Shown one piece after another: positions 10,217-63,434 of a DNA stretch of 64,000 bases; positions within the stretch are counted from its first letter, which is position 1, and every line of letters begins with the position of its first letter. The position numbers were made by a program, and so were the translations under genes. This DNA is from Amoebophrya sp. A120 (Eukaryota; Protista; Dinoflagellata): positions 75,350 to 139,349 of the forward strand of contig CAJINV010000034.1 of the NCBI GenBank assembly GCA_905178155.1, given 5' to 3'. Under the pieces are notes generated by a model. It did no database searches. It had not been told where the DNA came from and saw only the letters and a program-made list of their open reading frames with translations.

Positions 10217-12460
10217 TGGTTGTTATTGTGCTGGTTCTGTGCGATGTAGTAGTCGAGTCACCTGCTCCAGAACATGTCCACCGTCGAGCCGGCAAAGCGT
10301 TCCGAGGGGAATCCGTGATCGTTGGTCGCGGAGGTTGCGGGTTCTATACACGCCTGAAAACGCCCTTAATTAGCTATATAAATTACTACCTATTTAACCA
10401 TAGCTACTACTTTTAGGCATTAGAAATCAGGACTCTTTCTAGCTATAAAAAATCGCTAATAAAATTTTTGGGTATTTTGAGTTTGGGTAAGTTGACGCAT
10501 CCATATATCGGGATTATCAAATGCAAATATGTCTTCTGGGTCTGGAAGGATGCAAGGTTTGTCATGCTTGTCTGGCATGATGACTGAAAAGTCTGTGATG
10601 CGTCTCCAAGAAGAGACCCTTTTGCTTGTCATGCAAAGACGCAGTTTGTCATGCGGAAACCGCAACACTAAGCCCCGCAAATAATTCTCATGCTTGGCTG
10701 TGCATTACAGACCACTCACTATTCACAACTCAGCATTACAAGTTTCCAGACCCAGACATATTATTTGCGATGCATAGGGATTGCCCGCAACTGGATTTTC
10801 GAGCATTCTGTGCTGGAACGGGGCTGCAAAGTCTGGTCCTTTGACCCCACCATGGCCGTTTCGAACACACAACTCGGGTCGGACCCGGCCACCTACCAGC
10901 GATTACCGCAGATTTTGTCGAGTCAAACGAAGCGCCACCCGACCCGGCACTGGTTTTACTCCGTCGCCATCGGAACCACGATGGGGCAGGGCGGCGGGGG
11001 GCAGGGCGGCTGGGAGTCGACCAGTGTTTATAATCACCGTGGGGCGGGTTTTATCCTGTGCAAAAGTATCGTACTCGTATTGCAGTCATGCATTGCAAAT
11101 TTTTTTCTTAAGTTAAATCAGCATTACAAATTTTATTTCTTATGCTGAGGAAATTTGTAATGCATTTATATTACGAGTACGATACTTTTGCAATGCATAG
11201 GTTTCCGGTACAGCACAGTGACCCTGCGACACATGATCGAGCAGATTGCGAAGCTGCCGAAGGACCAGAATCTGCACGTACTGCGGATTATCAATTGCAA
11301 TAGCATCGTACTAGTGGTATATTGCTATACAAGTTAGCTCAGCACGACAAATGGAATTTGTCATGCTGATAATGCATGACTGCAATTACTACGAGTGTGA
11401 TACTTTTGCACACGATACGGATGGATGTGGAAGGCGCTGAAGTGCCGGTGCTGATGATATCCAATGCAAACATGTCAGTCTGTGTCTGGAAGATTGCAAG
11501 ACTTGTTATGCAGGTTTCCACGGCCCGTGGGGTGAGATCTGGGTCTGGCATGCAGGACTAGCATGACAGATTCTGTGAGATATCTATCTGATAGACGGGA
11601 ACAGGTGCACCAAAACAGGAATGATAGTATCATTCCTGTTTTGGTGCATGAGAAACTCCCTCTCCAATCGGTCAAATGTGCACACCAGCTTTGGGCAATC
11701 ATGCAACACAGATTTTGGCATGATTCAGATTTAGCATGACAAGTTGCAGTCTACATCCAGCCCCAGACATGTTTGCAATGCATAGATGAGTTGGCTCAAC
11801 GATAACGGAATTTTCAATATCCTGTGCAAAAGTATCGCACTCGTGGTAATCGCAAACATGCATTACAAATCTTTTATTTCATTTTCTTAAGGTAAATCAG
11901 CATTACAAATTTTCTTTCTCATGCTGAGGAAATTTGTAATGCATTTATAAGAGTGCGATACTTTTGCAATGCATATTCAATCGCATCGACCAGCTTTTGA
12001 TGGAGATTCACGTTTTCAAAAAAGGCCCGAACACGGACTTTCCCGCCATGCACAAGGCACTGGTGAGTGCTGTGGGGAAGTATATGGACCCCTTCTGGAT
12101 AAACAAAAACGGTCACTTATCCTGAGTAAAAACGTACCCACACCAGAGTTGTAATGCAGATTTGCAAAGACAGGAAGACTTGTAACGCGCATCCCCATGA
12201 GAGCCATTGCCAGTCGTGTTTTGGGATTTGTGATGCTGTGAACAGGATGAGCAGACGAATCTGTGATGCGGCTGCGCTTGCTAACCTGCACTACACTGCA
12301 TAGTGCAACTTGTCATGCGTGACTCACAAAACTCCTAGGCTTGTGTTGCAAAATCCCCATCCTGACTCTGGTGTGGGTGCGTTTTTACTCAGGATATCAT
12401 TCCCCCGCAGTCTATGAGGTCGGGTTCTTGAACCGCGACAGATTTAGGACGGGGAGGTAG
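10217..12460 (+). CDS. METTL24-like (Methyltransf_22/FkbM-related) methyltransferase, 5' end missing, 6 TIR introns
   Basis: Spliced motifs IGIARNWIFE, GCKVWSFDPTM, LRMDVEGAE, IDQLLMEIH, YEVGFLN; stop TAG 12458-12460; in-frame stop at 10201 and no ATG. Confidence 0.85.
10515..10776. mobile_element. Introner family B
   Basis: TIR TATCAAATGCAAATATGTC..TGGGTCTGGAA; DR GGGAT/GGGAT; frame restored. Confidence 0.9.
11052..11199. mobile_element. Introner family A
   Basis: TIR TAT....TGCAAAAGTATCGTACTCGTA; DR GGTTT/GGTTT. Confidence 0.9.
11289..11417. mobile_element. Introner family A
   Basis: DR CGGAT/CGGAT; splits LR|MDVEGAE. Confidence 0.9.
11458..11784. mobile_element. Introner family B
   Basis: DR GATGA/GATGA. 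Confidence 0.85.
11818..11975. mobile_element. Introner family A
   Basis: DR TTCAA/TTCAA. Confidence 0.9.
12118..12396. mobile_element. Introner family C
   Basis: TIR TATCCTGAGTAAAAACG; DR TCACT/TCATT. Confidence 0.9.
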
Positions 12461-13860
12461 AATGAGGTGTGGTGATCAAGAAAATTCTCGTGATGTGACG
12501 ACTGTTGTAGAAGTAGCAACTGCATCAAGACGAAAACCTCGACCTCCGCACTACTTTTATTGCCAACGTTGAAGCAGTAGATGAATCTGCGGCAATCTGA
12601 TAGTCACAGCGGACCGATAAAACACATTGCGCTTGATGTTCCACCAATGATCATCATCCTCGTCCTCGTGTAGCAGGCGTATGAAGAATAGAAAATTTTG
12701 TGCCAACTGATCTGCTCGCATTCCTTCTTCGGCTGCAAGGGCAGTTTAAGTTTTGTTTAGCACGACACAGAAATGTGGCTGTGGAGTTCTTGTCGATGGA
12801 AGTTGATCTAATTGCTTCATAATCTCGGATCAGTTCCTTGTACATTACCGTTGCCACGATCTGCACTGCAAAAGTAGATAGCAGTCCCGGAAGACGACCG
12901 ATGCATGGTCCTCGCATGCAAAAACACTTCTAGATTTTTTGTTGAGGACATGATCCCTCCCACCTATAGAAGGTTGTACTATTGGCAATATTGAACGCAA
13001 ACGGTCCTATTTCTAGCCCCTATATCTTTCTTCGAAAAAAATAAGGGAGCTGCGAAAAGGGAAGGATGCGGATGGTTTTTTCTTCTGGAAGATCAAGATT
13101 TGACTCCCATCAAGTAGATGAGATCTCTGCGTTGTGTTTCACATATCCCTTTTTCGTAGTTTGATGTGCTTGGAGGTAAAAACAAATCGGCTATAATGCA
13201 TGCCTGTTTTTCTGCTCGCGCAAAAGTTAATAATAGAAGGCATCAAATCATTATCATGATTTGTTGTATGAGAACGAATTGTATGAGTACCCGTTGGGCA
13301 ATGTGATGGGTTTCTAGAGCACAAGTTTCACGAATAAAGAACTGCTGCAAAACAATTGCTATGTCATCAAAAACTCCAAATTTTAGGCGCCGAAAGGGTC
13401 TCGAGTCAAAATCAAAATGTCTACAAAAGAAAGCTAATTTTCTCAACATTTGCTTAAACTGACAACTTCATGCTATTCCAACGACAACTACGACACTGCG
13501 TCACTAAGTACGTTTTTGATATGATGTAAAGCGACAAAATATGTTTCTTTTTCTATTTCTAAACTCGACTTGTTGATATTTCAAAGCGACAACAAGATTT
13601 TTCAACAACGCGACAAAACACCGCGACCTCTGCGATCAACTACATCAGACTGGAAGGTTGCGGCATTTGCTGTTTAGCGACAAAGCAGGCAAAAAGTAGC
13701 TTGCTGGCACGAAACTGAAAGTGCGGTGGATTTACTTTGCTACTCGGCTAGCTGTAGCTGCAACGGAGAAGAACTCAGAGACCCACCATAATTCCGCTCC
13801 TCCTTCCAGTGGCCTCTGGGATACTAGATCATATTGGACCACGACTAACATCCAATCACC

Positions 13861-16800
13861 ATGCCCAAAAGAAAGAAAACGAACGCGAGCGCCGTACTGT
13901 TTTTTTTTTCCTTTCCGGTAGGAGGTAGAAGAATTCGAAACAGGCGGAGTTGTGCACAAAACTTTTAGAACATGATAGTTTAGAAATTGTTTTCCCAGAG
14001 CAGGCTCTTTCATCTCGCAACAAACGTATAGCACAACGATGATGGTTTTTGATTTTGTGCATGACAAAATTTGTACGGAAGGTTCCGAGCGCATTAGAGT
14101 TAGTCTGAGCAACACGGTACAATTACCAGGTTCGCGGCCAAGGAGACCACGTGAGGACGACAACAGACAAGGAAGGTCACGGGCAGAATCATATTACCAC
14201 AGAGCAAGACAGGACGATGAAACAACCACTGCTCCTGACGCACAACACAAGTAGACCGGCTTCTGCTGCTGTCAACAACATCTCCTCGCAAGAAAATGAA
14301 TTGCAGGATCGTCATGTTGATGGTGTTGAAGATTCAACATCTGGAACAACACCACAAGTGGTCTCTGCGTTCTCCACTTCTACTTCCGAACGAGATCATG
14401 CTGAGAAAGCGAAAAAATACTACACGGCCAGTCGTCAGTGGTCTGGCGGACCAACCACGTGCGCGAAAAAGGTGTGGTCCTGGTTAATATCAGCTGAGCA
14501 GAAGGAGTATGAGTTGCAAAAGTGTCTGGGTCTGGAAGAATGCAAGTTTGTGATGCTTGTCTGGCTCTGGCATGACTCGAGAATCTGCGTTGCATAGGCA
14601 CGAAAGAGCCCTCTTAACTGTCACGCGAAAAGGCAGTTTGCCATGCGGAATACGTAAGACATGGCAGCCACAAAATTTGTCATGCATAGCTGCGTATTGG
14701 GGCGCGTCTATCATTCACTTTTAGCATTACAAGTTTCCAGACCCAGACATTTTTGCATTTCATAAGGAGCCGCAGCTGCTGACCGACCAGAAGGAACGAA
14801 AAGATGATAGTACTATTGCTGGAAAAGAGGATAGTATTGCTGCAGGAGGACCTGGTGGACGAACGACCTCCACACGAGCACGAACAGGCGCTAGCTGCTA
14901 TCGAATGCAAATATGTCCTCTGGGTCTGGAAGATAGATTGCAAGACTTGTCATGCAGGTTTATTCCACGGCCCGTCCCTGTCGTGAGGTCTGGAATGCAA
15001 GATAACTAGCATGACAGATTCTGATGTAAGATATCTATCATGCCTGTCTTGCATGAGAAACTCCCACCTCTCAACTTGGTCAAAACCAAAAATCGGACAG
15101 ATTTTGGCAATCACGCACCACAGATTTGCATGACAAGTTGCAGTCTTCCCGACCACCACCAGGGATGTTTGCAATGCATACTCGCAAAAATGCTAGTACA
15201 ACAACTGGTGGAAATAAAACTACTTCTACAAGTGCGTATTTGTGTAGTTCTCCTGCGACGAAGATTAAACCTGATGTTGCAAACAAAAGCGAAAAAAACC
15301 GTCTAATTTTGAAGACTCCGGTTCTCCTCACCGGCACCGCTTCAACCCGCGAAACCGAGGATATCTCCCCAGGACTCGGCCCCGCTTCATCTGCTGGCGC
15401 CAGCAGTTCCTCTGCTTCTTTTCCCAGTGCGACGACGCGGCTGCGGCAACGGGGTGGTAAGGCGAAGGCGCGAAGAGGTAAAAAGGGCAAAAAAGGCAAC
15501 AGTCTGGCCTCCTTCGTGGAGCCGGCAGAGAAGCTGACCTGCGCGGACATCAACTGCGCTGGGGAGCAGGCCGAAAACACAAACCGGACACCCCGCAAGC
15601 TGTGCTTGGCGCTTGTTCTGCTTGGCGGTTTTTCTGTTGTGGGCTACGTCGCAGCGCAGCAGTTTCTGCTGCGAGGTACTGCTGAATTTAAAAAACGGGG
15701 GCGGGCGGCGGCGGCCGCTCGTGCTGCAGCTGCAGAGGCGAAGGAGAATACCGGGGGCAGCTGGTGGAGCTCCGTTGCGTCTTTTCTCTTCGGGGACGAC
15801 GCAGATGCGGCAGTTCGCTCTGCTCCGCAGGAAAAAGAGAGCGTGGGCGAAAAGGAAAGCCCCGTCGGGCGGACCCCTGCTGCGTCAGGGGGTGTTGACA
15901 AAGCTCCCGTCGCCGCGGATGCCCTGGAAAAAATGCACGACGCTAGCAACACCAACAGAAACAGTTTGTTGAACCAGGTGCAGCCGCAAGGCGAAGATGT
16001 CGGACAGCACGACTCTGATAAACAGCACAGAGGAACGGGGAATGCAGTGACTACAGCCAACATTTTGACTGATCAAAATACACCTACATTACCTGGCGAA
16101 CTACATCAAACCGATCCTGACCAGCACTCGTCCACTTCTGCGGTACAACTATCTGGTGAGAAGCACTACATGAGCCAACAACAAGAAGCGAAAACTGCAC
16201 CTCCTACAGCTGCTGTTTCGCACCTACAACAGCAGCCGTCTACATCAACTTTGGCGCAGGGCAAAAATCAGGGGGTGGATCAACATGCAGTACGAGCAGA
16301 CGACGTTGGTATGAAAGGAAATCAGCCTGGTGGAACTACAACTTCCAGCCACGGAGAACCAAATGTGGGAGGTGAAAATAAAGGGATCATGGCACCTCTT
16401 CAGACTACAAGCGTGATGAATCTCGGCCCGCAAGATGAACCGGCGGAACTACGAGACCCTGTACCGCAAACCACGAGCCCCACCGCAGAGAAGAATTATG
16501 CATTGCAAATGTACTACGTATCGCGCACACGCTACATGAAAAATTATTTTCTCGTGAAGAAGAATGAGAAAATAAAAATCGGAATTCCTCACCCTCATGC
16601 AGATTCCGGGACAAGCACAAGAGCATTAGAATGAATTTTGTATTTTTTGTAATGCACGAAAGCGATTACGATTTAGTACAACAAGCCCGAGTTGTGCGTT
16701 AGTACTTTTGCTTTGGAGAAGAATGGTGGTAAAGGTGGTGCTGCAACGAGGACGGGGCCGCAACAAGTTTCTTACGCTCCGATCTCTAGGGTAGGGACGA

Positions 16801-19800
16801 AGCGGAAAGAGGAGGAGAACGCCCGGGGGATTGACGAAAGAGACGGAAAGAACCGTGAGCTCCACGAGGAAGAAACTCTGACCAGGAAAACCCAGATGGT
16901 GACGCGAAGCGGCCGGAGTGGAGGTCCAGCGTACACCAATCAGCGCGTTCTATCGCCGGACCCAGAGAACAAGGATGCTCCTGCTCCTGCAGAAGAAGTG
17001 GTGGCGCGACCTTCCACGGGAAAGATGGGCAAGCACTTACCTGCTCCAGCACGCGGTCAAGGGCGGGACGAGGTGAGCAATGATCACGCAGATACTGCTG
17101 GCAAAAACAGGATGAGCACGACGAAAGTCGCCGATGAAAGGGCTACGTCCTCTGGGAACAAAATTACCTCCGTCGTGATCAACGAGGAAAATGTGGTGCA
17201 AGAAAATTATGACCAGGACAGCGATAATTTTCTCTCCGGTGGCCGCGAGGAACCCGTGATGTACGACCACAACGGCGCTTTGTTATTGGAGGAGCCGCAG
17301 AATGAGAAAAAACAAAAACAGGACAGACTTGCTGAGAGCAACAAAAAGCAGCAGACTCAACATCATCATGCAGCTTCGTCACAGTCTAAGTCTTCCGGTC
17401 CGGAAAATGAGGCCGCGACAACTGATGATGGAAATTTAGTCACACCACGACCAGCGTCTGACGACATCGCTGGAAGAACCCCTGCGTTAGACACAGGTGT
17501 CGACCACGAGGTACTAGCTGCAACAACCAATACTGGTGGCGTTTCTATTGAAGGAAACAGGCCGGAGCAGATTGACCGTGCTGATGCACTGCAGGTTGAC
17601 GAACATGCACATGGTCATGATGAGGACGCCAGTGGAACTACTACAAGTGGTACTGGTACAACGGGCAGCACCTCCACCGCTGTGGAAGTCGGACTCAGAC
17701 CACCTAGCAAGGAGAAACAAGGGCGAGAGGTAGCGGAGATAACTGGCTTACACGGGGGCGATGAGGAAAAATCAGGAGGACAAGGCGGGATTACTACAAA
17801 TGCTGAAGATGCATCTTCGAAAATGGCAAGGGCATCTGTTTATTCACCGCAAAAGTATCGTATTCGTACTCACTGATTGCAATGATCTCCTATGCCTATC
17901 GCATTCGCAGAAAATTCATCATTACACATTTCACTTTTTCTTTTCTCTCGGAAATAAAATTTGTATATGTAAATGTAACTAGTTGTACTGGTGGAACTAG
18001 AAATACTGTACTCTACGATACATTTGCAATGCACATTGTTGAGAAGCCTGGTCAGACAAGTGGGGCGAAAGACGTTCACGTGCAAAAGCCGCCGAGCAGC
18101 ACGAGTAGCAGCATCGACGCCGCTGCTGATCCAGGCCAACAATCTGCTGAGGAAGGAACTGCTGTTGCTACGACAGAAATGCTCCCTTCGCATACAGAAG
18201 AACAAGGAGACTCTCCTTCAGCCAGCACGCTATATAATGTGTTTGTCCTTTCGGCAAAGGCACCCATCGTCGACCCGCTCATGATGCCTTCGACATGGGA
18301 GTTGGATTATCACCATTTAGTCCAGGGAAACGAAGAAGAGCTATCCGTTGCAAATAATATGTGTGGGTCTGTACAGAAAATCGAAGTCCATTGAGCCTTT
18401 TGCTTATTTGCGGATGAACAGCACCCTATGCACAAGGAGGGGCCACGCCTGACAAGGAAGACTTTGAGGGACTACGTGCGTCTGCCGCAGAGCAGCGCAT
18501 ATACGATTACGAATAGCGTTTTTGCATGACAAATAAGACGCCCTGCCCTTAGCCGTCCAACATGACAAATCTTGCCACGTACAATCTTCTCTGGTGTGTT
18601 CACCGCTCGAGGACGATTATTACTGGTTGAAGAAGCACGCGTGTCATATTTGCATTTCCTTTCAGGTCCCAAATTTTGAAAAAGCTTGACTTTGATTGCA
18701 AGTGCAATCTTCTTGGCCCAGCCCCAGACATAATCTTCGCATTGGATAGGAACTGGAGACCCATACCACTAACGGTGTCGTCGACGCATATGACAGAGTA
18801 CCAGGTTACTTTACCGACCATCGTAACCCGGATACTCACCCGCTGCTTCAATTCGATATTCCAAACCCCCACGACGAAAATTACGGCCAGTTCCTTTTCA
18901 GCGAACAGAATCTCAAAAGCGCAACTGTGGCAGCGAAACAGCTGGAGTTTTCCTTCAACTTTCCTCAACAAGCAATACGACAACGCGCAAGCAAACCACC
19001 GTCCGCTTATGCTTTTTTGTTGTGCGAAATGGCTGACGCAGCTCCAAATCCCTCAAATTGCTTTCCGGAAAACCCGGATGCCGCCACAGCAAAGTCTTGC
19101 CGTGTGATCCTGACAAGCAAAACCGCTGACGGGAAATGCGCACCGCTGTTCCTCGTCCGAAAAGCCGGCACGGGGGGGCCACTGGTACTCCTTTCAACCG
19201 ATAAAGTCACGACCGAGCTCTACGAGAAACCAGGACCCGATGGCGTCGAGGGATTAATTCCACGCGTCCTAACAAAGCTCGTACGCAACATATTTGCGGA
19301 GACGTCCCTGCTTGCCCGGTCAGCAAAAGCGCTGAAAAATATAGGAGAAGATGCACTGTCGTCTTGGTTGCCCAACGCTCTGGGGGCCCTTCTTGGAACG
19401 CTTTCTGGTTCGACTGCGGCTTTTGGTGTCGGTTCTGTGACGCGGGCGATCGTAAGCGAGCTTGTCGTGCCGAAGGTAGTGCAGTCGAATTCGGATTTAG
19501 CATCTTTGGACAATCTCCTCGGACGTCGTTTGCGCATTGCTACGAAATGGGCAACGAATTCTGGCTGGGGTTCGGGGGCAAATTGGCCACACGGAAGATT
19601 CCTGAAAAGATTCATCGGAGGAAAAGTGCAGGAGTTGGTTCCATACTATCTGGACTACTACAAGATCGATGTTGCAGCGATGACGGGTTTGGCTGGCGTT
19701 TCCATCACGTTGATCGCGCCATATTTGTGGAGCGAAATGTTCAAACAAACCGCGAGTCAGATAACCCGCGATCTTCAGCTTCACGTCTACGACAGAATAG

Positions 19801-22800
19801 TGGCGGAAAGGAAGGACAATGTGAACGATGAAGAGGACAAGGCCAGGGCACGCAAGATGGCGGCGGCAGTTGAAGCTTTCAAATCGAAAATGAGCGATGC
19901 AGCAGATTCGCTCTGGCGACCATTCGTCCCGCGTTTTGGGCTCCGACTTGCAACAAGGAACCCCGCCCACATGTTCGCATGGCACTACCTCGGCCTTGCA
20001 GCACAAGAAGAAGCAAAAAGCGCGAATAGCGGTCGCCGTAGTAGCGCAGTCATCTCTGCACTGAGTCCGCGTACAGGAGCACTGCTCGAGGCAGCGATCT
20101 TGGGCCAGCCCAATGCACCAGACGAGGGAATAATACTACCAGCATCAGATGAAAAAAATGCAGCTATCTTAGCACAAGCAAAACAGAATATTGACGAGGA
20201 AAACAAAAAGGACGCTGACGCAGCGGAGAAAACCCTGCGAGACCTCTTGTGCGCAGCCTTACTTCAGCCCAATGCGGTTACAGTACCGGCGGGGCGAGTG
20301 GTGTGGAACGCCGAAGACGAGCTCTGCTTCGTCGCAGAAGTCACTGGTGCAGCTGCTTCAGCAAAAATAGAAAATCTGGATACCGATGTGAAAACTGCTG
20401 GACAAAGCAACGCCCTCGCGGAAGACCCGGACGACAATACGGGCATGCGAATGTTTGGGACAGCCATTCCGGCGGCAATACGTACGTGGGAGGTACTACG
20501 TTCCAACAAGCCACTGGATTGGTTTAATAAAAGACGCAAAAATTCTGAAGCGCTCGCGAAGGAGACTGCTGTGGAGCCGAAGAGCGACAGTCTTGCGGAT
20601 GTGCTTGCCGGTGTTGATTACAAGGAAATACAAAATGCACCAAAGAAGGACATCCCAGAAACAACGGGGACTCTGTGGGACGACTTGTTTCCCGTAGAGC
20701 AACCGCTCTGGGACCCCGCTGGCATTATTGCTGCCTCAGAGGAAACCGGAGTAGCTGGCTTGAAAATGCGAAGAGTAGATTTTATCGGCGACTTCACGGA
20801 GCTACCTGGAGTAAAAGAATTGTTAGATGGAGATGGTGCAAAGAATCTGAATCAGAATCCGGCCGACGAACTTGCGGCAGAATTAGCAAAACATTACAAG
20901 GCACAGATCCTGGACCCAATGTTGGAGACGTCGCAGGAGAAAATACGCGTAAAAGCCGTTGAAGATGAACAGCCTGGTGGTGTGGGAGCTTTATTCGACA
21001 ACGCCACGCAGTTTCTTAAAGATGCAGTGCAATCGAGCACTTCTGACGCCAAAAGTGCCATGGAGGCGCGCATACAACTCGGCATTCTTCGGTCTGGTGA
21101 CTTGCTGACGAAGGATCAAGACGTGGCTTCGTCAGATGGTGGTGTAATTGAACTGCTGGTGCAAAAAGCAATTGATAACGCAGGCACCAGCGTCGGCGGT
21201 TCCACCTCTGCCCCTACCTCGAGGGCAACATCCCTCGATACCGAAAGTGATTCCCCTGTGCCTGCGGTGCAGCGTCATGTCGAAGACGCAACTTCGGCAA
21301 TGTCATCTTCCGTTCCGGGGAACAAGGCGGAGCGTGACGGTGAAAAAACAATCGGAATCGCGTCATCACCTCCTGACAACCCCGCTGTACGAACTCGAAC
21401 TCCTACTGCGTCTGGTGTTGACGAAACTCCCGTCCTCGCCGGGAGTGCAGCTGAAGTGTACGACGCCAGCGGCGGTTTGGTGAACCAGAAGCCCCTGCAG
21501 AGCGAGGATGTCGGACACGGTCATCCCGATAAACAGCAGAGAGAAACGAGGACTGCAGCAGCTACTGTCAAGATCATTTTGGCTGATCAAAATACACAAC
21601 TACATGGCGAACAACAAACCGATCATGACCAGCACTCCACTTCTTCTCCGGCACAACTATCTGGTGAAATGAACGGGAACGGCGCTGTAGGTGGTGCCGG
21701 TGCAGGTGGCAAGATGGGCGACAGCTATGCTTGTGCATTCCTAACTACGATGTCTGGGTCGGGAAGAGTGCAGACATGTGTCATGCACTTTTTGGACCTG
21801 CAGCTGCACCTGCAGGAAGCTCTCGAGTGCACGCGGAGCATGCCAAGTTCCCCGAAGCTTTTCAGGCTTAGCGTGCATGAGAAGTGCCAACTTGTGATGG
21901 GCGGCACCAAACGCTCACGCTTTTCCTTTTTGCTGGCTAGACAAGGCGTGCGCCTTCCTCAGCACCACAAGTTGGCATGTTTCCAGATCCAGACACATAA
22001 ATATGTTTGCAATGCATAACGAACAAGCTACGTCCACAACTTCGAGAAGCACCCCCGACCCTGCGCTGTCAGGACACGGGGACACAACCGTAATGGGTGG
22101 TGGTGACCACACCAGATTGAAGGGAGATGATGAGACCACGGCGGGAACGACTGGGACGGGCCCGGTTCAACTGGCTGAAGGCGGAAGCACTGTTCGTCAC
22201 GTGCAGCATAGTGAAGACGCAGCTTCGGCAGTGTCGTCCGCTATGGGAAAGAGCATTGAGGACACTACCGCTGGAAAATCAACTAGACCAGCATCAACAT
22301 CATCAAATTCAGACGACACCGCTGGACGAGGTTCTGCGTCAGCTGTTGAAGAGCAGGCAGCTGGAGAAACTACTATCGGGGCTTCGTCCCACGGGGAAAA
22401 GCCAGAACAAGCCACCGCTGCTGGTGATCTTCCCGTGCAGCTTGAAGACGTTGATGGGAAAAGCACGGCGAGCAGCACCACGAGCAGCAACAGCATCGAC
22501 ACAGCGGGTGAAGATGATCCAGCGCAGCATGGAGCTGAGGAAGAAACGGCTGTTGCTACGACAGAAATGTGGAGCAAATTTGGTTTTACAAGATTTGGAA
22601 CCCGCAGTGGCCCTACCCCGAGTTCGAAAGAGACGAGCCAATTTGATGAAAGGTGGAAACTCTTGCAAACAAAAATTGCTGCTGCACTCGAGAAAATGCA
22701 GAAAGTCGGGCCAAAAACTTTCAATCATCTGTGGAACAAGGCGGGACGCGCTGGCTCTGTTACTGTTACTCAGGCGAAGCGCGACGAAGTATTCGAGCAA

Positions 22801-25354
22801 AAAGATATAAGCATTACGTCAATTGTGCTTGTCGTTGCCGCGACTGCAACAAAGTGGTACGTTCTTAGAGTGTAAGTATCTAATCTAGCTGTAGTACACT
22901 GGAACCTCTTCCAGGTTACCGTGACGTGCATAGTTTTCTCCGCGGCCAGCACTACGCGCGCCAGAAAATCATGTCAAATGCATCTCCTAGTTACTGCTCT
23001 TCTGTGCAGTTAAGTACTTCCTGTGTGGCATTCTGCAAGAACATGTGCGATTGCGAAGTGCTCCTACTACAAAAACATTTCGCGCGGCGACGACATAGAT
23101 GGATGTACATTTGACTCTGCTATCAAATTTTCCTGTTATGCGCAATCTTCATCCTCCCAGACGAGCATGTAAAGAAGGATGCAATGGACTACTGGAAAGA
23201 TCAGATAGATTTGGCTGTGGTTCGCGGGCGCGCCGAGCCGGATATGAATGTGTCAACCGTGATGAGGATCTTTCCGCACGAAAAGAACAAGATGCCCGAG
23301 GAACGAGTAGTCGAAGGAACGGAAACCGAAACTGACGGCGGCATCGAGATAAGCTGGGACGCGCGAAGCGTGTCTTCTGGTAGCTTCGGAACCGTGACGG
23401 AGGTGTCCAATAATCCACCACGCCCTTTTTTTTTTCCGGATCAGCAAACGATGCCCGACCACCAAGTCGTCAAAGTAGTAGAATGTCCGAATAAAAATTC
23501 TCCGAATGCAGAACAGTGTCTGGATGAACACGTTCCCGAGGTCATCTTCAACGTAATCCTCAGCCGTACTGCGCAAGATTGTGTGGCAAGAATGTCCCGT
23601 CTTGTTGTAAGCTCTGATCTGAATAGCGACGGAGAGCTGAAGACGCGCCTTTTCTTTTTTCTTGAAAAGGTAGAAATGCTCGCCACCACAAGCCCGAATG
23701 CAGGAATGATTCCGCCTCCGGCGAGTGATCTCGGAAAGGAGAGGCTGACCCGGGCATTATTCGCGTGTTACGCCGACACTTTTGCAGACCTCGGGCTTGC
23801 GCACAACGACGTAAAGCCTAACAATATTGGCTACACGGGAGACGAAGCCTGGCAAGCGGAGGCTTGGGTGAGAGTGTTTGACTTCGACATGAGCAGTTTT
23901 ATCGCCGTAAAGGACGCCGGGCCCGGGGCCACCGTAGGGGGCGGAAGCGCCACCCTCATGACAGCGAGCGTCATGCTCGGACGTGATCCAAATTTGGACC
24001 CAGGTGTTGATTGGCGGTCCATCAACAGTAAGCAGGTTCAAACCATCTTCACAAGGCTCAACCCCAATCAGAATATAGAGCAGTCGTGCCCGGCCTGTTT
24101 GGAACCATTCGCGCAGTATTTCCACCTTCTCCCAGGTCCGCCTCCTAGTGATTCTGAGGCTAGCCCGAGCCCGCTCCAGCTTGATTTTCTTCAGCACCCT
24201 TCCTGTGTTGGCTCTCCGGGATTTAATCACCCGCTTCTGGAGTGGTATCCCTGGCGATGGTTCCAACACCATGCCGCGCCTTACAAAACCAACGACGTCA
24301 GCGGGGCTCCCCAATTCAACGAAGGAACAGAAGCGCGGGCCTGGGTGCCTTACCAGGGGCGACAGGACAAAGGCCCGACAATTCCATTCGCCACCTCGTT
24401 CGACCTCCATGGGGTTGCCGTTGTATTGTTTTGGCTGTTTGACAACCACCACGGCCACGAGCAAACGGAGGGGCGCGCTTTTGTATATTACGAGAATTTC
24501 TTCCGCTACGACTGGTTTTTCTGGCCGCCGCTCTGGGAGGAGGTTTTCTTCAAACAAGAACCGCAGGCAGACGATTGGCGCGGAGCAAAGGGGCACGCCA
24601 CGAGGGTGGTTGTTTTACCTGGGACGGAATCGCGCATATACCTTCCCTTTCCGAAAGCAAAGTACAAAACCGTACAAGAGGCGAAGGACCATTTCCAGGA
24701 AAGAAAAAAACTACCCCAGTACCTTCTCGAACTGATTGCGCATCCGATTGAACACGCCTACCAACCAAACGAGGTCGCAGAACGGGTCAGGAGTGTGTTG
24801 GGGTTTTTCAAAGAGAAGGAAGCCGGGGGCAACGAACAAGTCAGCACGGACGCAAAGGTCAAGGCATTGCTGCAGGATCCGGGTGGGTCCACGGCGTCTG
24901 TTTCTTCTACTGGTTCGCGCGATCAAGATGCCTCGACGTTGTCGCCCGCTTCGTCCTCTTTTTCACGACCTTCCGGCGCTGTCGTTAAAAATGGTAATAG
25001 AGTAGGTGGCAGTTTCAGTTTGAGTTTGGCGGCTGCAGCAGCTTATACATTGCAAACGTCTCGTACTCGTGCACGCACTTACGTATAAGCTGCAAAATAT
25101 ACAAATTTTATCGGCGAGAACAAAAGTGGGGTTCGTAATTCTGATTCAGTTCGGGAAAGATGATATTTGTAGACTGCAGTTTATGCGAGTACGAGAATAC
25201 TTTTGCAATGTATACCGCTACAGAGGTGCTCCAAGTAGGGGGACAGCCGGAGCACCAGACCGGTGCTGATCCACCGCAGACTGACAAACACGATGTTGAT
25301 GGCGGAACTGCGGATAGAAGCAGTGAGGACAGGAGCACGATTGGCAGTCGTTGA
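13861..25354 (+). CDS. Giant (>3000 aa) low-complexity membrane protein with C-terminal divergent protein kinase domain
   Basis: ORFs 14151, 15126, 16692, 17882, 18927 and 22003 join in frame after removing TIR introns; TM segment LCLALVLLGGFSVVGYVAA; the link to the kinase ORF via a small exon (~22915-22989) and acceptor AG at 23160 is inferred; 5' start uncertain. Confidence 0.6.
14508..14764. mobile_element. Introner family B
   Basis: DR AGGAG/AGGAG; near-identical to 34380-34631. Confidence 0.9.
14899..15180. mobile_element. Introner family B (decayed DR)
   Basis: DR GCTGC/CTCGC; frame restored. Confidence 0.8.
16497..16719. mobile_element. Introner, family A-like
   Basis: DR AGAAT/AGAAT; right end AGA instead of ATA. 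Confidence 0.75.
17841..18035. mobile_element. Introner family A
   Basis: DR CTGTT/TTGTT; right end ACA. Confidence 0.8.
18342..18748. mobile_element. Introner family B (long, diverged)
   Basis: TATCCGTTGCAAAT..TGTGTGGGTCTG ... CCCAGACAT..CGCATTGGATA; DR AGAGC/GGAAC; removal joins ORF 17882 to 18927. Confidence 0.75.
21726..22018. mobile_element. Introner family B
   Basis: DR ACAGC/ACGAA; frame restored. Confidence 0.8.
23184..25043 (+). CDS. Divergent Ser/Thr protein kinase domain exon
   Basis: Gly loop SSGSFGTV, VVK lysine, catalytic HNDVKPNN, DFD in place of DFG, GSPGF, DLHGVAV. Confidence 0.8.
25044..25214. mobile_element. Introner family A
   Basis: DR CAGCT/CCGCT. Confidence 0.85.
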
Positions 25355-39800: not shown

Positions 39801-39939
39801 TGCTTAAAGGGTGTTCATTGGGTTGTGTAGATGACTGATGTGTTCTCGCGCCGGATCTTCGGACATGGATGGAAGAAGGAACAGATGGAGTATGTCTGCG
39901 CCCTGCCTGCGTTCGTTCGCACTGGATTCGTCGCAGTGA

Positions 39940-47233: not shown

Positions 47234-53652
<6,419 letters not shown>

Positions 53653-56483: not shown

Positions 56484-59400
56484 ATGCCGCCCAAGGCAAC
56501 GAGCCTTCTAAGCAAGGCGAAAGCCACCTCCGCCGCAGCAGCTACTACACCCGCGAAAGCCAAAGCCGGCTCGACTCCAGCTGCGTCCGCTTCTGCGGGA
56601 AATAAAAACAGCTATGAATCCTGGTTCCCGCTCCAAGACGCGAAAGCGAAACTAGAAGCGGAAAAGCTTTTCGGAAAAGACTCTGCAGACGGGGCGCACG
56701 AAGCAGAACCAGGTGACTCACTCACCTTACATGACGTCTTCGAAAAAAGCTCGAAGCTCTTGACCGAGGAAAGCAGCACAGTGTTGAAAAACCTTTTCTC
56801 CGCGTATTTGGCTGTGGATGATTTTACAACTTCCGCGAAGAAGACTAGCGGAAGTAGCGGGGAGGATTTTTTACGACCCGTGGCGGAACAAATCCAACTG
56901 CGTCAAATCGCGGCCATAGATCCACTCGCCTTGAGCCTGTCGCAGTGTGCGAAACTGGAGGCGGTCATGTTTGGAGGAGGTCGTGGTGCTGATGAAGCCG
57001 TAGGAAGTGAGAATGCAGCAACCAAAGCCGTTCTTCTTGCGGAGAAAAAGTTCTCCGATTCGTTCGCCAGCCTTTTGAACCAAATAAAAGGCACAGCGAC
57101 CACTGCAGCGGGAGGTGCTGGAACAGCATCTAGTGCAACTACGGCGAAAGCCGCCCGGCCACCTGCGCTTGCGAAGGCGAAAGCGGGTAGCAGTGCAGCT
57201 GCATCAACATCGGGGAACAAGACCACAGGAGCAGCGGCAGCCGGTGGAGCGGCCTCCAATTCAACTACAATGTCCGCAGAACATCAAATCCTCCCCTTAC
57301 TTCTATCCCTGATTTACCAGGGTTTGGTCCTCCGAAAAACGGATTTCACAACCAACCTGCTACCCATGATCGCACCAAAATGCTCCACTTTCTCGGAGGT
57401 CTACGACTGTTTGGTCCAGGCGGAGCGGGGGGAGCAGCATGTGATTTGTTGTGTGAAGAACAGTAGCAGTTTGCTGCTGCAGCAACAGCTGAAACAGTTT
57501 GCAGCGTGCATTGTGAGCGCGACATCATCGTCCGGTGGACGAGGACAAGAGCAGAAGCAGAACACAACTTGTGTCATCGACGTGAACCAAGTCCTAGCGG
57601 ATTCCTTCTTGAATCGGACGCAAGCTACGCTCGAGGGACTCCTGTTGTCGGTAATCCAGCCTGTTTTGTCTGGTAATGGCAGCTCTGCAGGAGACAGCAC
57701 AACTGCGGCTCCAAACAACATGATTTTCGGCAGCAAGAAACTTTGCTTCCTCTGCGGCACGCTTGACGTGACGAGTGTTTTGGAATATTTCGGAGAAATT
57801 TTACGGCAGAAAGGGCTGTTGGGGATGTTGAACAAGGATTCGAACAAGACGCAACTCATCTTCTTCACGATGGCACCAGCTAGTACAGCTTCGACTACTA
57901 GTACGGACAGTAACGGCGATCCCTTCATCCCTGAGGATCAACTGGCGACGATTCATTTTGCCCCGGCGCATATTAACCTCTCACGACCAGGGCCATTTGA
58001 CGGCGCTAGCAACGACTCTTTCCACCTTGCCGCGCCAAGCTGCTTGTTTCGGGAACGGGAGCGGAAAAACAAACAGCAACTACAGGACGAAGGGATCCGC
58101 AGCGGTAGTGCAGTTGCCCCGAAAAAAGATGATGAGCTTGACAAAGACCTGCAAAATGACCTCACCCACGTTTTAAACCAGAGCGTCGCATTTGATTTCG
58201 CCGAAGATTTTACAAAGTACAGCATCACAGGAGATAGCCCGAATTCCACCTTCGCATCGTCCAAAACGAGCAACGGCCCCACCTGGCTCCCCGGGCCAAA
58301 TTTCGAGGACGAACGGGGAAACAAGCTGAAACCAACTTTGATCTCCGCGAAGATCGTGAAACACCCGGTACAGTGCCCACAGATCGCGAGTATCCTGTGC
58401 AAAAGTGTCGTGCAGGCGTGCATGAGAAGATTCTTTTCTGAACTATATTTTAGCATGACAAATTTAGTTATACAGTTTTGATAATGTTCATCCCGTTAAA
58501 ATTTCTGATGCGATAACTTCAACTGCTCGTTACGGTTACTATCATGATACTTTTGCATATGCATAGCAACGCCCTGTCTGCAACTCGTTGGTGGCGCGGC
58601 GAATTCGCATTGCACGGGGTTGTATGCACTGCAAAAGGATCGTACATTCCAAGTATAAACGCATTACAAATTTCCTCAGCATGAGAAATGAAATCTGTAA
58701 TGCGGTTTTCCCTTGAGAACAAGATTTGTATAAATGAATGACTGCAATTACTAGTACGTTTACGAGTGCGATAGTTTTGCAGTTCATAGGTTGTATCATT
58801 GCTTTTTCGACGGCGAAAACATTCGAGGCGGTGGACCACACGCAAGTGAAACTACAAGCTCAACAACAACCCAAACAAGTGACAGTGCTTCTGCTCTCCT
58901 CATCCGTCCCAATACGATCGAATTTACGTTCACGATGCAAGGCAAAATCGAGTTCCAAAATGCCTGCGTCGTTTTCACGGAGAAGAAAATCGAAAACCGA
59001 ATCCTTCCTGACGCGAGGGTTGGCGTGCAGTTCACCGTGACACGCGGCGGGTTGATGATTTGCGAAGAAAACATGAACTCGGTGAACATCCAAAACGACG
59101 GGAAGCTATGAACTGCAAAGGTATCGTACTCGTATAAATGCATTACAAACAAGGTCAGGGCACGGGGGCGGGGGCCCCCGTGCAGCGACCTTCCCGCCCT
59201 TTGCAGGACGGGGCGCACGTCGTAGGACGGGGCGCCCTTTGCACGGACGTGGACAGCACACCAGAAATTTCAAAACTTTGCGCTATACTGAAAGCAAGGG
59301 CCCGGCCGCAGAGTCCCCACGCTGACCTAGGGCCTTGGCGCCTGGGCCGTACGGCTCCCGGGAGGCATCGCGCGCGTCCATCCAGCTGGCCCCTAGGTCA

Positions 59401-62400
59401 TGACGCGGGGACAGAGTCCCCGCGCTGACCTAGGGCTTTCGCCCCGGGGCCGTGTTCGGGAAGCGCTTCCTTGCAGCTGGCCCCTAGGTCATGGCGCGGG
59501 GACAGAGTCCCCGCGCTGACCTAGGGCTTTTGCCCCGAGGCCGTGTTCGGGAAGCGCTTCCTTGCAGCTGGCCCGTTCCCGCGCTGACCTAGGACTTTTG
59601 CCCCGGGGCCGTGTTCGGGAAGCGCTTCCCTGCAGCTGGCCCCTAGGCCATGGCGCGGGGACAGAGTCCCCGCGCTGACCTAGGGCTTTTGCCCCTGGGC
59701 CGCAGGCACGCTGCCCGGGAAGCGCTCAAAGCCCGTCCCTAGGTCATGGCGCGGGGACAGAGCGGCCTCGCTGACCTAGGGCTTTTGCCCTTGGGCCGTG
59801 CGGTGTCCGGGCAGGCACGCAGGGCCCGTGACTAGGTAGCCCCTCCGTCATGGGGCGACGCTCGTTGGGACAGGGCCCCCCCGTTGATCTAGGGCTTTGG
59901 CGCCCGGGCCATGGGGATTTCCCTCCGGGACGGATGCAGGCACCGAGAGCTCGCCCCCGGTCATGGCGCGGGCGGACACGGGGTCCTCGCGTTGGCCTTG
60001 GGCACTTGCCCGGCCGGCCGCGGGCCTTGCCTGCGGTGCCCGGGAAGCGCTCCCTCCCAAATGTTTTGACATGGCGCCACCTTGGAGGCCCATGCCCAGA
60101 CGGGGGCGGGGCCGCCTACGGGGGTTCGGGACTTCCGCCTCCTGGAATGTCTGCGCGCCCGCCGCTCTCTGTTCCTGCGTGTTTGCGCCCAGCGGGCCCA
60201 CTCACTGTTGATGTGCTTGGTCTGGAATAAAAGCGGACGCGCCCGGCGTGCCTGCTTCCTTGGTCTACTGGCCTGGGTGGTGGCGCGTGTGCATAGAATA
60301 AAAGCAGCCCCCTGCGGCCTTTGCAGAAAAATGCAGGGCCCATAGATACGCGCCCGCCTTGTTTCTCAGCCGGGCGCGCGCTTGTTTTGTTGTCGCAGAA
60401 AAGGCCCCCGCGTGGGGCTTGCTAGGTCGGCGCGCCCGGAATGTCTATGCACGGGGCACACCAGCAGCAAACACACCCCAAGGCACGGCGGCGAGTGGCT
60501 TCGCGGGATCCACCCCCTCGAGTGGGCCTGCTTATCTGTGTTGACACTCACTGGCCATGCCGATCGGAGTCGCGTCCGAAAGCGCCCGGGGTCGGTTCGG
60601 GGGTGTGTCCAGCTTTTTCCCCGAGGTGTGTTCGGGAGTGTGCCCCGGGGTGTGCCTGGCGGGTGTCGGGTGTGTGTGTGTGTGTCTGGGGTGTGTGTCG
60701 GGGGTGTGGGCCGGGGGTGTGCCTGGGGTGTGTCGGGGGTGTGTCTGGGGTGTGTCTGGGGTGTGTCCGGGGTGTGTTCGGGGTGTGGCCTGCAAATTGC
60801 AAATCACGATGCTACGCAGCCACTTTGCATGCCCCAGAACACACCCCAAAGCTTCAGCAGTTCTTGTCGGGGGGGTGTGTCGGGGATGTGTCTGGGGTGT
60901 GTCGGGGGTGTGTCTGGGGTATGTTTTGGGGTGTGGCCTGCAAATTACGAATCCCGATGCTAGGCAGCCACTTTGCATACCCCAGAACATACCCCAAAGC
61001 TTCAAAAGTTCTGGTTTGCTGCAGTCTAAATAGTAATTTCCTCAGCGTCAGAAATAAAGTTTGTAGTGCGGATTTGCATTCAGAAAAAGATTTGTAATGC
61101 AGAGGTTGCATTTATACGAATACGATACTTTTGCACAGGATAGAAGCTGAAGAATGACAAGTGGTGCAGCGTGAAGCTGCAGATTGACTGGAAATATGCT
61201 CATTTTTAAAACCGTCCCTACCGCCAGCACGCCCAGAGTTGTCATGCGGATTTGAATTTGATGCGAAAAGAATCGCAGAAACGTTTGCACTAAAATGCGC
61301 ATCCCCATGAGGGGCATCTTCAGTCGTGTTTTGGACTTTGTAATGCTGTCACCAGGATAAGGAGTTGGCTTTGTCAAATGCGTGACTTGCAAAACTGCTG
61401 GATTTGTGTTGCTAAGTTCCCAACTTGATTCTGGGATGGGGCGACGTCTTTCCTCAGCATAGGAAAGAGAAAAAGATCATTCCGCAAGTGGATTTATCAA
61501 ATGGAAATATGTCTGGGTCTGGATCTACGTTGCAAGACTTGTCATGCAAGTTTCCCATGCCCCGTGAGGTCTGGAATGCGAGACCCAGCATGACAGATTC
61601 TTTTAGGTCTCTATCGTGCCTTTCCTGCATGAGAAACTGCCTCTCAGCTTGGTGAAAAGCGGACAGCTTCTGGTACTCACGCAACACAGAAGATTTTTGC
61701 ATCTTTCTGATTTAGCATGACAAGTTGCAGTGTTTCAGATGCAGACACATTTGCCTTTGATAGGATTCCCAAATGAAGGGGAAGTATGCTCCGGCCAAGC
61801 AGAGCGTGGCGTTTCGGGACAAGCGGTGCAATATCAACTGCAGGATTCTTCGTTCTGGTCTGCAATAAAGGTGATTGTTCCTGTTCGATTCGTGTTTCTG
61901 AGTTAAGCATGACAATATTTTTCTCCCGCTTGTTGTTAACCCTGAATCAGCTGCAACACAACCCATTGAAGCTGTGGTCCACCTCTGCCTCATGCACATG
62001 CTCATTTTCACTGGAGACTGGCATCACAAATTAAGACTAAGACAAGAGGGATATTTACTTGCAATGCATATGTAACGGCTTCGGGTACGTCTACCTGTAC
62101 AACTGCGAGTCCTTGGCCACGTTCTGGTATCCAGAGCCGCGAAAGTATCGTGCAGCTGCAGTCTTTGTCCTGCATAACAGACCAAGGCTTCTGTACTAAA
62201 ATCAGCATGACAAAGTCAAAGTTTGACTATTTTAAAATCAGTCGATTTGTTCAGTAGAAAATTTGTCATGCGACAATTTAATACAGCTACTAGCGTGATA
62301 TTTTTCTACATGCATACCGGGCTGCAGAAATTGCGGGTTGCAAACGAATATGGATTGCAAAAGTGTCTGGGTCTGGAAGATGATTGCAACTTGTAATGCT

Positions 62401-63434
62401 GGATTTGGATTCTACAATAAATCTGTATTGCATGAACGGCAAGAGAGGTCCAGTTTTTGTCATGGCGAAAGCGCATTTCTGATGCGGTATAGGCATGAGG
62501 AAGCCCCCATAAATAAATGTGTCATGCTAGGGCATGCATCACAGACATCAGGAGTCATGCAAAATGTGCATGACAAACCTTGCATCCTTCCAGACCCAGA
62601 CACTTTTGCATTTGATAACAAAGTGGTCGCAACGGATGGAGACGCGGACAACAAGTATGCAGTGGAAAAGTGTCGCACTACTAGTACAAGTAGGCGCATT
62701 GCAAATTTTCTCAGCATGACAAATGGAACCTGTCATGCTGAATTCTCCTTGAGGAAATCAATTTGTCATGCACTACTGCAATTACCATACTACGAGTACG
62801 TCGATGCTTTTGCAGAGGATAACAAAACTTTGCTGGCCATGGAGGGATTGGATGCGAGAAAGTATCGCAAGAAAAAACTGTTTCATTGTAAACTTGTAAT
62901 GCAGAAAATGCATCGGAGAAGTGTTTCTCTTGCTACACATGCAAGACAAGGATTTTTAGCTATGTTTTCCCTTAGGAGTCTCGCATGGCAGATTTTCTCT
63001 GTAATGTAGAACAAACTTGTGATGCAAAAATTGGAAAATCGTTACAGTGAAACAGTTTTTTCGTACGATAGAAAGCAAATGGAGGATAACCTGCGGAAAA
63101 AAGAAGCGGAAAAGGCCGTGGAGAATATGGAAAAGGGAAATAAGTTGTGACGACAAAACACTTACAGTATCCTTCATCCTCGTGACGAACTTTTCGTCTA
63201 TTAAGGAAAAGCTTTTCTCCTGCGGAATGTTAATGTAAATGTTGCGCATGAGGATCAGCAGAAAGAGATCTGTAGTTTTTTCGCGGCGGAGGAACAAGAT
63301 GGTTGTCACTATCTATTTTCGTCTTCTGCATAGCACACGATATGAAGGTGGGGATGAAGATGGGTGGATTTGCGAAAACAACTGGACATGGGATGAATCT
63401 GGCGGAAGAACAGAACGCGAATATCAAATTTTGA
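56484..63434 (+). CDS. Hypothetical protein with Ala/Lys-rich N-terminus and probable beta-rich C-terminal domain, 11 TIR introns
   Basis: Frame traced from ATG 56484 through micro-exons (…QNDGK|LKNDKWCSVKLQIDWK|EKKIIPQVD|SQMKG…) to …EEQNANIKF* (TGA 63432-63434). Confidence 0.75.
58391..58565. mobile_element. Introner family A
   Basis: DR GCGAG/GCAAC. Confidence 0.8.
58623..58788. mobile_element. Introner family A (reverse orientation type)
   Basis: DR GGTTG/GGTTG. Confidence 0.9.
59310..59800. repeat. ~90-bp tandem array of GC-rich hairpins
   Basis: CCCTAGGTCA-TG-GCGCGGGGAC-AGA-GTCCCCGCGC-TGACCTAGGG at 59391-59435, 59482-59526, 59641-59685, degenerate 59737-59781, plus half copies. Confidence 0.9.
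60598..61012. repeat. (GGGGTGTGTCN)n minisatellite inside a ~150-bp duplication
   Basis: 11-mer G/T repeats 60598-60785 and 60870-60935; GGGTGTGGCCTGCAAATT…CCCCAAAGCTTCA block at ~60781 and ~60930. Confidence 0.85.
61195..61461. mobile_element. Introner family C
   Basis: Internal sequence matches 12118 and 43455 copies; DR GGAAA/GGAAA. Confidence 0.85.
61495..61762. mobile_element. Introner family B (reverse orientation type)
   Basis: DR GGATT/GGATT. Confidence 0.9.
61832..62070. mobile_element. Introner, diverged family B-like
   Basis: DR TGCAA/TGTAA; frame restored. Confidence 0.75.
62127..62316. mobile_element. Introner family A (diverged)
   Basis: DR TCTGG/CCGGG; frame restored. Confidence 0.7.
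62349..62617. mobile_element. Introner family B
   Basis: DR ACGAA/ACAAA. Confidence 0.9.
62656..62821. mobile_element. Introner family A
   Basis: DR ACAAG/ACAAA. Confidence 0.85.
62863..63070. mobile_element. Introner family F-like
   Basis: TIR TATCG…GAAAAAACTGTTTCA.TGTAA; DR GAAAG/GAAAG. Confidence 0.85.
63126..63332. mobile_element. Introner, highly diverged (family J)
   Basis: TATGGAAAAG..AAATAAG.TGTGAC.AC / GTTGTCAC…TATTTTCGTCTTCTGCATA; DR GAGAA/GCACA; frame restored. Confidence 0.6.

Follow-up and report, generated by a model that had tools for sequence, protein, structure and literature searches.

In the stretch of Amoebophrya sp. A120 DNA analysed here (the window, 64,000 nt), MITE-like elements that interrupt genes appear to be removed at a fixed position: all 13 junctions at which the two copies of the flanking direct repeat differ fit a single cut, 1 nt before the TAT at the left end of the element and 4 nt after the ATA at its right end. 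The direct repeat does not appear to be read by the removal machinery. Neither the fixed 1/4 cut nor the independence of removal from the repeat had an earlier description in the literature searched.

A pattern scan combined with manual pairing of ends recovered 66 TAT…ATA elements between positions 10515 and 63332, the same count and range as in the original prediction. The start is TAT in 64 and TAC in 2, and the end is ATA in 64, AGA in 1 and ACA in 1, as had been claimed. In the pattern scan of the window 35 of 43 candidates scored at least 11; Markov-simulated sequences (n=5) yielded 3-7 candidates each, none scoring above 10. The elements have terminal inverted repeats (TIRs) and a target-site duplication of constant length, are short and non-coding, and lie in either orientation, as expected for MITEs; both orientations occur within + strand genes. 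No recognisable coding capacity was found in the window elements, and we infer that they are non-autonomous transposon copies. A division into about ten TIR families (A 29, B 21 and smaller ones) was not reproduced by BLAST clustering, which gave clusters of 23, 17, 3, 3 and 2 elements and 18 singletons. The elements and the frames that carry them are as follows.

10515..12396, + strand: gene 1, six elements (10515-10776, 11052-11199, 11289-11417, 11458-11784, 11818-11975, 12118-12396); 233-codon open frame after removal
14508..22018, + strand: gene 2, six elements (14508-14764, 14899-15180, 16497-16719, 17841-18035, 18342-18748, 21726-22018); 2359-codon open frame
25044..25214, + strand: gene 3, carrying one element and perhaps forming the end of gene 2; frame after removal
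27042..34631, + strand: gene 4, 17 elements; open frame, with contig joints of element + 5 for nine from 30263 on
Gene 4 elements, first half, + strand: 27042-27204, 27248-27390, 27993-28254, 28354-28501, 28680-28990, 29054-29299, 29378-29575, 29877-30085
Gene 4 elements, second half, + strand: 30263-30411, 30541-30799, 31101-31250, 32628-32777, 32812-33022, 33080-33341, 33728-33873, 33989-34254, 34380-34631
35300..37696, + strand: gene 5, MFS transporter (PF07690), elements 35300-35469, 36884-37045, 37422-37696; contig joints for 36884 and 37422
41214..41801, + strand: gene 6, elements 41214-41450, 41547-41801; joints 41212>41455 and 41543>41804 in three runs
43455..45138, + strand: gene 7 (Methyltransf_24), elements 43455-43737, 43896-44049, 44287-44608, 44670-44927, 44986-45138; joints for the last three
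47652..53474, + strand: gene 8, DED1/DDX3-like DEAD-box helicase, 15 elements; 53297 joined directly, the other 14 through summed skipped length in one contig
Gene 8 elements, first eight, + strand: 47652-47922, 48012-48173, 48243-48487, 48550-48712, 48926-49223, 49700-49851, 49939-50158, 50460-50671
Gene 8 elements, last seven, + strand: 50765-51026, 51722-51830, 51914-52055, 52136-52419, 52462-52764, 52829-52982, 53297-53474
Gene 8 GT-AG introns, six, + strand: 47346-47534, 48781-48879, 49333-49488, 50237-50368, 51064-51198, 51448-51675
58391..63332, + strand: gene 9, 11 elements (58391-58565, 58623-58788, 59107-61142, 61195-61461, 61495-61762, 61832-62070, 62128-62316, 62349-62617, 62656-62821, 62863-63070, 63126-63332)
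59150..61030 (edges approximate), no strand assigned: GC-rich tandem-repeat insertion of about 1.9 kb within element 59107-61142, without the internal motif described below

We counted nine element-bearing open reading frames, all on the + strand, where eight host genes had been predicted; two of the nine may be one gene joined through GT-AG introns at 22872-23160, which would give eight. Genes before 10.4 kb are without clear elements. A homologue search with a gene 2 exon found none. In gene 4, element 28680-28990 is a composite with two right ends, and 34380-34631 is located 3' of the stop codon. Taking out each element plus 5 nt opens long + strand frames, and the insertions within helicase motifs, between ATP and GR and between DEADR and MLDMGF, are as claimed; 62 of the 64 elements checked would disrupt the frame if retained.

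Removal was followed in assembled contigs. Element plus 5 nt is missing from spliced-looking contigs for 17 elements directly and for 14 more by summed length. Among the joints listed, 15 of 15 skip element plus 5, with 31101 and 53297 added from contig pieces. The four contig runs come from one sample of one study and consist of contigs only; they are presumed to be RNA, which the loss of GT-AG introns from the same contigs supports. The start of one such intron, 49333, was picked after a 21-nt shortfall appeared in the summed skips. A further 11 elements, those of gene 9, are consistent with the public protein P0001: spliced at the fixed cut, gene 9 translates to P0001 over 901 of 901 amino acids. 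P0001 is an annotation and is not independent of such RNA data. The contig joints thus bear out the expectation that transcript mapping would show loss of the element plus exactly 5 nt without GT-AG borders. The predicted lack of consistent GT/GC-AG ends also held, such ends being possible at 5 of 66 elements under any placement compared to 4.1 by chance, and present at the mapped cut in 2 of 66 window elements and 9 of 280 oriented elements.

The position of the cut was determined from junctions at which the repeat copies differ. The only cut compatible with all nine contig junctions retains 4 nt of the left copy (P=0.031), and four more junctions from P0001 agree, giving P≈0.002 for the 13 under randomly placed cuts. 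Two junctions, 41214 (contigs) and 63126 (annotated protein), set the lower bound of the cut, and cuts may be mixed between elements. At 21726 the fixed cut would yield codon R, and neighbouring cuts K or S. Five is the sole fitting length for the direct repeat, with exact 6-bp copies in 1 of 66 window elements and 0 of 331 in a wider set. The original prediction of a 5-bp repeat at every element was correct as to its length, but only 37 of 66 elements have identical copies, alongside 18 with one mismatch, 7 with two and 4 with three; in the wider set the copies are exact in 244 of the 331. Two elements indicate that the repeat itself is not read. At 34380 the repeat lies one base out of register, and contigs skip 257 nt, the TIR distance, rather than the 258 nt of the repeat match; at 63126 just 2 of the 5 repeat positions match, and P0001 still fits element plus 5. 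The claim that removal reads the TIR/direct-repeat structure rather than spliceosomal dinucleotides is upheld for a transposon origin and the lack of GT-AG; the support does not extend to the direct repeat, to a reading of RNA structure or to a route outside the spliceosome.

The elements are the A120 introner elements already described (PMC7789003, Farhat et al. 2021); their predicted identity as Amoebophrya introners agrees with the anatomy given there and with the A120 label on P0001, the gene 9 protein. A120 introners have inverted repeats of TAT, seven variable bases and AAA, direct repeats of 3-5 nt (a 5-bp example in the Fig. S19 legend), repeated families, non-canonical ends and RNA-seq support, and the text suggests that four nucleotides of the direct repeat precede the inverted repeat (PMC7789003). 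The window elements share the inverted-repeat rule, the repetition in families, a direct repeat (5 nt here) over the exon/intron border, and removal without GT-AG.

The mobilising enzyme had been called unresolved. No transposase was found here, but a candidate is in print: A120 introner family 38 is about 808 bp, with TIRs, a 5-bp duplication, TA/TA termini and integrase-like homology, and is labelled Ginger in the dataset (PMC12130899). By description it resembles the window elements (5-bp duplication, TA/TA termini). IS3EU/GingerRoot elements also share TA..TA termini, but their duplication is usually 6 bp (PMC10045372), a length that does not fit the window elements. No long coding element with the same ends was found in the window or in 149 loci. 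Of seven long TIR-bounded stretches, those examined proved to be either usual elements enlarged by nested insertions or pairings due to chance; their longest ORFs span 85-269 aa. Seven ORFs, five of them within 1-10 kb, had no Pfam match, the window had no Rfam match, and viral contigs had no match to the TIR pattern.

We also identified an internal motif, YTGTVATGC, that occurs in both orientations and is present in 379 of 397 elements, representing 60 of 71 clusters. Spacings between same-orientation copies tend to be multiples of 10.5 bp (Rayleigh p=6e-4, R=0.50, n=30), though they are not independent of ancestry. The motif matches 6 times in 939 nt of GT-AG introns (null mean 0.1, maximum 2 of 500) and 4 times in 25.4 kb of exons. 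Four of the six gene 8 GT-AG introns bear it, two as pairs 33 bp apart. Neither the motif nor its spacing is mentioned in the available portion of PMC7789003 or in other literature searched. A branch-point role for the motif is not supported: the TNA core would suit it in either orientation, but within GT-AG introns the motif lies anywhere from -36 to -90, and it is absent from two of them.

With moderate confidence, we attribute removal to a relaxed spliceosome of U2 type that takes its signals from the TIR ends. The mapped cut yields U+2/A+3 in 66 of 66 elements, a register that matches the GTA donors of the same gene (GTA in 6 of 6 gene 8 GT-AG introns). The occurrence of the internal motif in GT-AG introns as well points the same way. 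An integrase-related (Ginger/IS3EU-like) transposase would make the 5-bp duplication and would probably bind the helically phased YTGTVATGC sites. Each TIR end would supply both splice signals, so that either orientation works. Read forward, the end would be N-U-A-U, providing the U+2/A+3 core of GTA donors; at the 3' end it would provide a U-tract (positions -18 to -15) and AUA (-7 to -5) as the reference for locating the acceptor, with positions +1, -2 and -1 free. Since 1 + 4 = 5, the exon would be restored without the repeat being read. According to PMC7789003, A120 has U2, U4, U5, U6 and nearly all spliceosomal proteins, with U1 snRNA undetected; 15% of its canonical introns carry inverted and direct repeats; and T occupies +2 in each of its nine most frequent non-canonical motifs. 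TIR introners of Fritillaria borealis, likewise MITE-derived with TIRs and duplications, need the U2 spliceosome (10.1101/2025.08.15.670264). In that species, however, splicing takes place at the TIR ends themselves, mostly AG-AC/AT, and U1 has been retained, whereas in A120 the host duplication supplies the two terminal bases, which are free.

The freedom of the terminal bases counts against this reading, because splicing is said to need a non-Watson-Crick pair between the terminal intron bases. All 16 (+1, -1) combinations are present in 280 oriented elements, which show no base preference at +1, -1 or -2 (G at +1 in 83 compared to 85 in the mirror control; AG in 24 compared to 15). The U+2/A+3 of U2-type introns is found, but GT/GC…AG ends and a constrained terminal pair are not. 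Neither a branch point nor a lariat was identified. A drift of +1 to G, apparent in the window, was not replicated in a second assembly (4 compared to 6), nor was a drift of -2/-1 to AG. In favour of the spliceosomal reading, variants of the 5' terminal triplet are at +4 in 5 of 5 confidently oriented elements, whereas the 3' mirror positions do show variation (5 of 8; Fisher p=0.075). This asymmetry vanishes (p=0.62) once three copies of low-confidence orientation, variable at +2/+3, are counted.

A separate, non-spliceosomal pathway, like that proposed for euglenids, is possible, although we suspect it is not the correct one. In it the TIR ends would form a stem, a nuclease/ligase would count off 1 nt on its 5' side and 4 nt on its 3' side, and the intron would be released as circle or linear RNA. 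The indifferent end bases, the fixed distances, the undetected U1 snRNA, TIR-end pairing predicted in 55 of 65 elements, and a geometry near the Euglena rule N3-CDG…CH'G-N5-6 all favour it. Nonconventional introns of euglenids likewise lack GT-AG, and the inverted motifs that define their termini stand at set, asymmetric distances from the cuts (PMC12501133). Their CDG/CH'G lies at +4 to +6, compared to +2 to +4 for TAT/ATA, and they require a purine at the next exon base, a bias that A120 elements do not show; the signature with purine at exon +1 was not found. Selection for an RNA stem is not supported: TIR pairs contain no excess of G·U (192) over A·C (182), a result without earlier description in the literature searched. 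TIR positions 4 and 7 are complementary in just 24 and 21 of 66 elements. Further against such a pathway, the cut falls on the canonical U+2/A+3 register, and the internal motif is common to GT-AG introns, whereas Euglena hybrid introns are rare.

It is rather unlikely, in our estimate, that a fuller scheme holds, in which a U1-less splicing machine, indifferent to both terminal bases, measures from the transposon ends by a ruler code N/N-TAT…ATA-NNNN/N (slashes mark the cuts), any insertion duplicating 5 bp leaves no scar whichever way it is oriented, and a single DNA-binding factor at phased YTGTVATGC marks both elements and GT-AG introns, tying transposition to intron definition. We regard as improbable a DNA-bound factor, transposase-derived or host, that marks the intron during transcription through phased motifs and TIRs and passes positions to the splicing machinery. 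The prevalence of the motif in both orientations, its 10.5-bp phasing, the 33-bp pairs in two GT-AG introns and its rarity in exons fit this role, but phased subterminal sites are expected from transposase binding alone, the spacings share ancestry, GT-AG introns could be old elements, and 6 of the 66 elements, like 2 of the 6 GT-AG introns, have no exact copy. Ciliate IESs have TA-rich ends with short TIRs, as do these elements, and the evidence comes from among the joints listed, with 751 + 12 joints outside that list; DNA excision of this kind, or a cut floating within the repeat, is nevertheless very improbable, given that contigs without elements also lack GT-AG introns, that contigs of the DNA-like run X5 run through an intron and through elements, and that a single cut is common to the 13 informative junctions.

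Although the elements themselves are published, their splicing route was left open and their borders were called unknown in print. A fixed cut would explain harmless insertion in either orientation, and would allow rule-based re-annotation of tens of thousands of A120 intron borders. The phased motif offers a bait for a mobilising or marking protein. If the relaxed spliceosome acts on these elements, then the two terminal bases, believed to pair with each other in the active site, would be dispensable; if it does not, A120 would represent a second case of Euglena-like splicing.

The 66 predicted elements between 10515 and 63332 were recovered in number and range by a scan for inverted ends bordered by a 5-nt repeat, an end profile and manual pairing. 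The repeat scan scored 35 of 43 window candidates at 11 or higher; five simulated sequences, serving as control, gave 3–7 candidates each, with no top score above 10. Element length varied from 109 to 2036 nt (median 216), and both orientations were represented in the two largest families (9/8 and 8/15). GT/GC-AG boundaries could be placed at 5/66 elements against 4.1 expected. The original prediction also placed a 5-bp direct repeat on every element; the length held and the exactness did not, the repeat being exact in 37/66, while 18, 7 and 4 elements show one, two and three mismatches, respectively.

As an outside check, a caller blind to the repeat was applied to the window and to at least 149 overlapping loci (598 kb), fetched by TIR pattern from a second metagenome-collection assembly of uncertain relation to the window's genome. 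In the window, 44 of 46 calls agreed with the 66-element list. The caller found 331 elements among the second-assembly loci listed, with an exact repeat of 5 nt in 244, of 2 nt in 28, and of any one of 3, 4 or 6–8 nt in at most 7. Orientation in these loci was taken from a codon model (neighbours concordant in 64/74). Three elements there carry nested insertions:

L024, 632-1465: nested insertion of other sequence, 340-690 nt
L050, 3862-4492: nested insertion of other sequence, 340-690 nt
L069, 7024-7995: nested insertion of other sequence, 340-690 nt

In the window, the composite element 28680-28990 has right ends at 28868 and 28990, each followed by CCGTT; its frame check refers to removal to the outer end (28990) only.

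Deletion of each element plus 5 nt opened nine + strand frames, the host genes including a DED1/DDX3-like helicase, an MFS transporter and a methyltransferase. Transcript evidence came from contigs of four runs of one single sample, whose RNA status is a guess and not recorded; these contigs lack both the elements and the GT-AG introns, and contigs of a DNA-like run are continuous through both. Between 26.3 and 46.3 kb, the joints listed cover at least 16/27 elements (15 from the joint table, one from contig pieces, with 12 further joints beyond those listed), each skipping the element plus 5 nt. In the helicase gene, one element joint was direct and 14 elements fit by summed skips of 1419, 1133 and 1245 nt, one GT-AG intron start having been shifted 21 nt post hoc after a shortfall; the shifted start is a GTA site and leaves the frame intact. 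Gene 9 (58391-63332), spliced by a ruler cut 1 nt before TAT and 4 nt after ATA, yields public protein P0001, labelled Amoebophrya sp. A120 by its source, over 901/901 residues. Removal of the element plus exactly 5 nt is thus supported by contigs for 31/66 elements, by the P0001 annotation for 11 more, and by frame alone for 24.

Where the two repeat copies differ, a joint reveals k, the number of bases retained from the left copy. The k intervals of nine contig junctions intersect at the single value k=4, and four P0001 junctions are also consistent, making 13 in all. Over the 13, k is bounded below by 41214 and 63126 and above by 30263, 33989, 53297 and 58391 (element starts). Under random draws of k by each element, the probability of a common value is 0.031 for nine junctions and 0.002 for thirteen. 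The common cut indicates that the intron reads N-TAT…ATA-NNNN. The direct repeat does not guide the cut, contrary to the prediction that it is read: at 34380, outside the coding frame, the repeat is a base out of register and 257 nt, rather than 258, are skipped, and at 63126 only 2/5 repeat positions match. At the mapped cut, 94/187 second-assembly elements in the loci listed fall between codons (p=4e-6), against 25/63 in the window (p=0.26).

The mapped cut places U at +2 and A at +3 in 66/66 window elements, the arrangement also present at the helicase gene's six donors, all GTA. Among confidently oriented copies, 5' terminal-triplet variants occur at +4 only (5/5), and 3' variants at the mirror of +2/+3 in 5/8 (asymmetry p=0.075; p=0.62 after adding three weakly oriented copies). 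We give about an even chance to a relaxed spliceosome that reads the TIR-end sequence. A normal spliceosome is argued against by 280 oriented elements, in which all 16 (+1, -1) combinations are present and no excess of G+1 or AG was found; a drift toward G+1 in the window was rejected, as it did not replicate in the second assembly. A separate pathway measuring from the stem is rated somewhat less likely than the relaxed spliceosome. TIR pairs contain 192 G·U against 182 A·C, which counts against a selected RNA stem, in a test diluted by fixed family asymmetries. In the downstream exon (window and loci listed), depletion affects T at +2 (37 observed, 56 expected) as well as A at +3 (44 observed, 61 expected; p about 0.001, uncorrected for the 20 positions), as if a fresh N-T-A donor past the joint were avoided.

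An internal motif, YTGTVATGC (counted as YTGTNATGC), occurs in 153 copies in 14.3 kb of window elements and 4 in 25.4 kb of exon; the GT-AG introns, 0.94 kb in total, hold 6 (against a null mean of 0.1, maximum 2 of 500). Across the window and loci listed it is present, in both orientations, in 379/397 elements and 60/71 clusters, mostly 35-50 bp from an element end. Spacing follows a 10.5-bp period for same-orientation copies (R=0.50, n=30, p=6e-4) and converging copies (R=0.88, n=8), these cluster-level values not being independent; two GT-AG introns carry pairs 33 bp apart. Such phasing points to a protein binding double-stranded DNA, which would most simply be a transposase. DNA-level marking of the introns seems improbable, and all other explanations together slightly more so. 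Given its presence in GT-AG introns, either these introns are old elements or the sites serve the host. The motif is also carried by putative GT-AG introns, or termini of such introns, at 7731-7892, 14026-14129 and ~23100-23159; two of the three start G-TAT, and 7882 resembles a leftover right TIR. Upstream of the 66 elements, at 816-964, lies a TIR element that lacks a direct repeat. The frame is kept whether it is removed by the ruler cut (815-968) or as a GT-AG intron (815-974), the outcomes differing by two codons, and it may stand midway between these intron types.

Other features include a degenerate TAT…ATA element at 4922-5010 (TIR weak, repeat poor, in no evident ORF) and a 1.3-kb element at 3363-4688 from another transposon family, with different ends (CAGGCGGACAG, inverted) and a flanking duplication of 8-9 nt. 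An uninterrupted ORF of 841 codons (5176-7701) gave no Pfam match. TAT…ATA elements are absent from a GC-rich intergenic stretch (38330-39800) and a 149-bp tandem repeat (63600-64000).

The intron system itself is already known. In the sections covered of Farhat et al. 2021 (PMC7789003), these A120 introner elements are described with their border called unknown, U1 snRNA and a transposase are both reported as not found in A120, and the nine top A120 non-canonical motifs all have T at +2. The nine top motifs of the other strain, A25, all begin TT, and its IR begins TTA, which by our reading would likewise yield U+2/A+3. Excerpts of PMC12130899, with 41/58 A120 rows of its Dataset S7, show splice-site calls varying from family to family, and family 38 with a 5-bp TSD, TA/TA termini and integrase-like homology. 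No description of the fixed cut or of the motif was found in the portions searched of these papers, PMC10045372, PMC11282704, PMC12005148, PMC9860276, PMC12501133 (euglenid introns) and bioRxiv 2025.08.15.670264 (Fritillaria borealis introns); Farhat Figs S19-S25, Roy 2023 and Henriet 2019 may bear on this. What the window adds is a probable splicing register and a phased motif common to the elements and the GT-AG introns.
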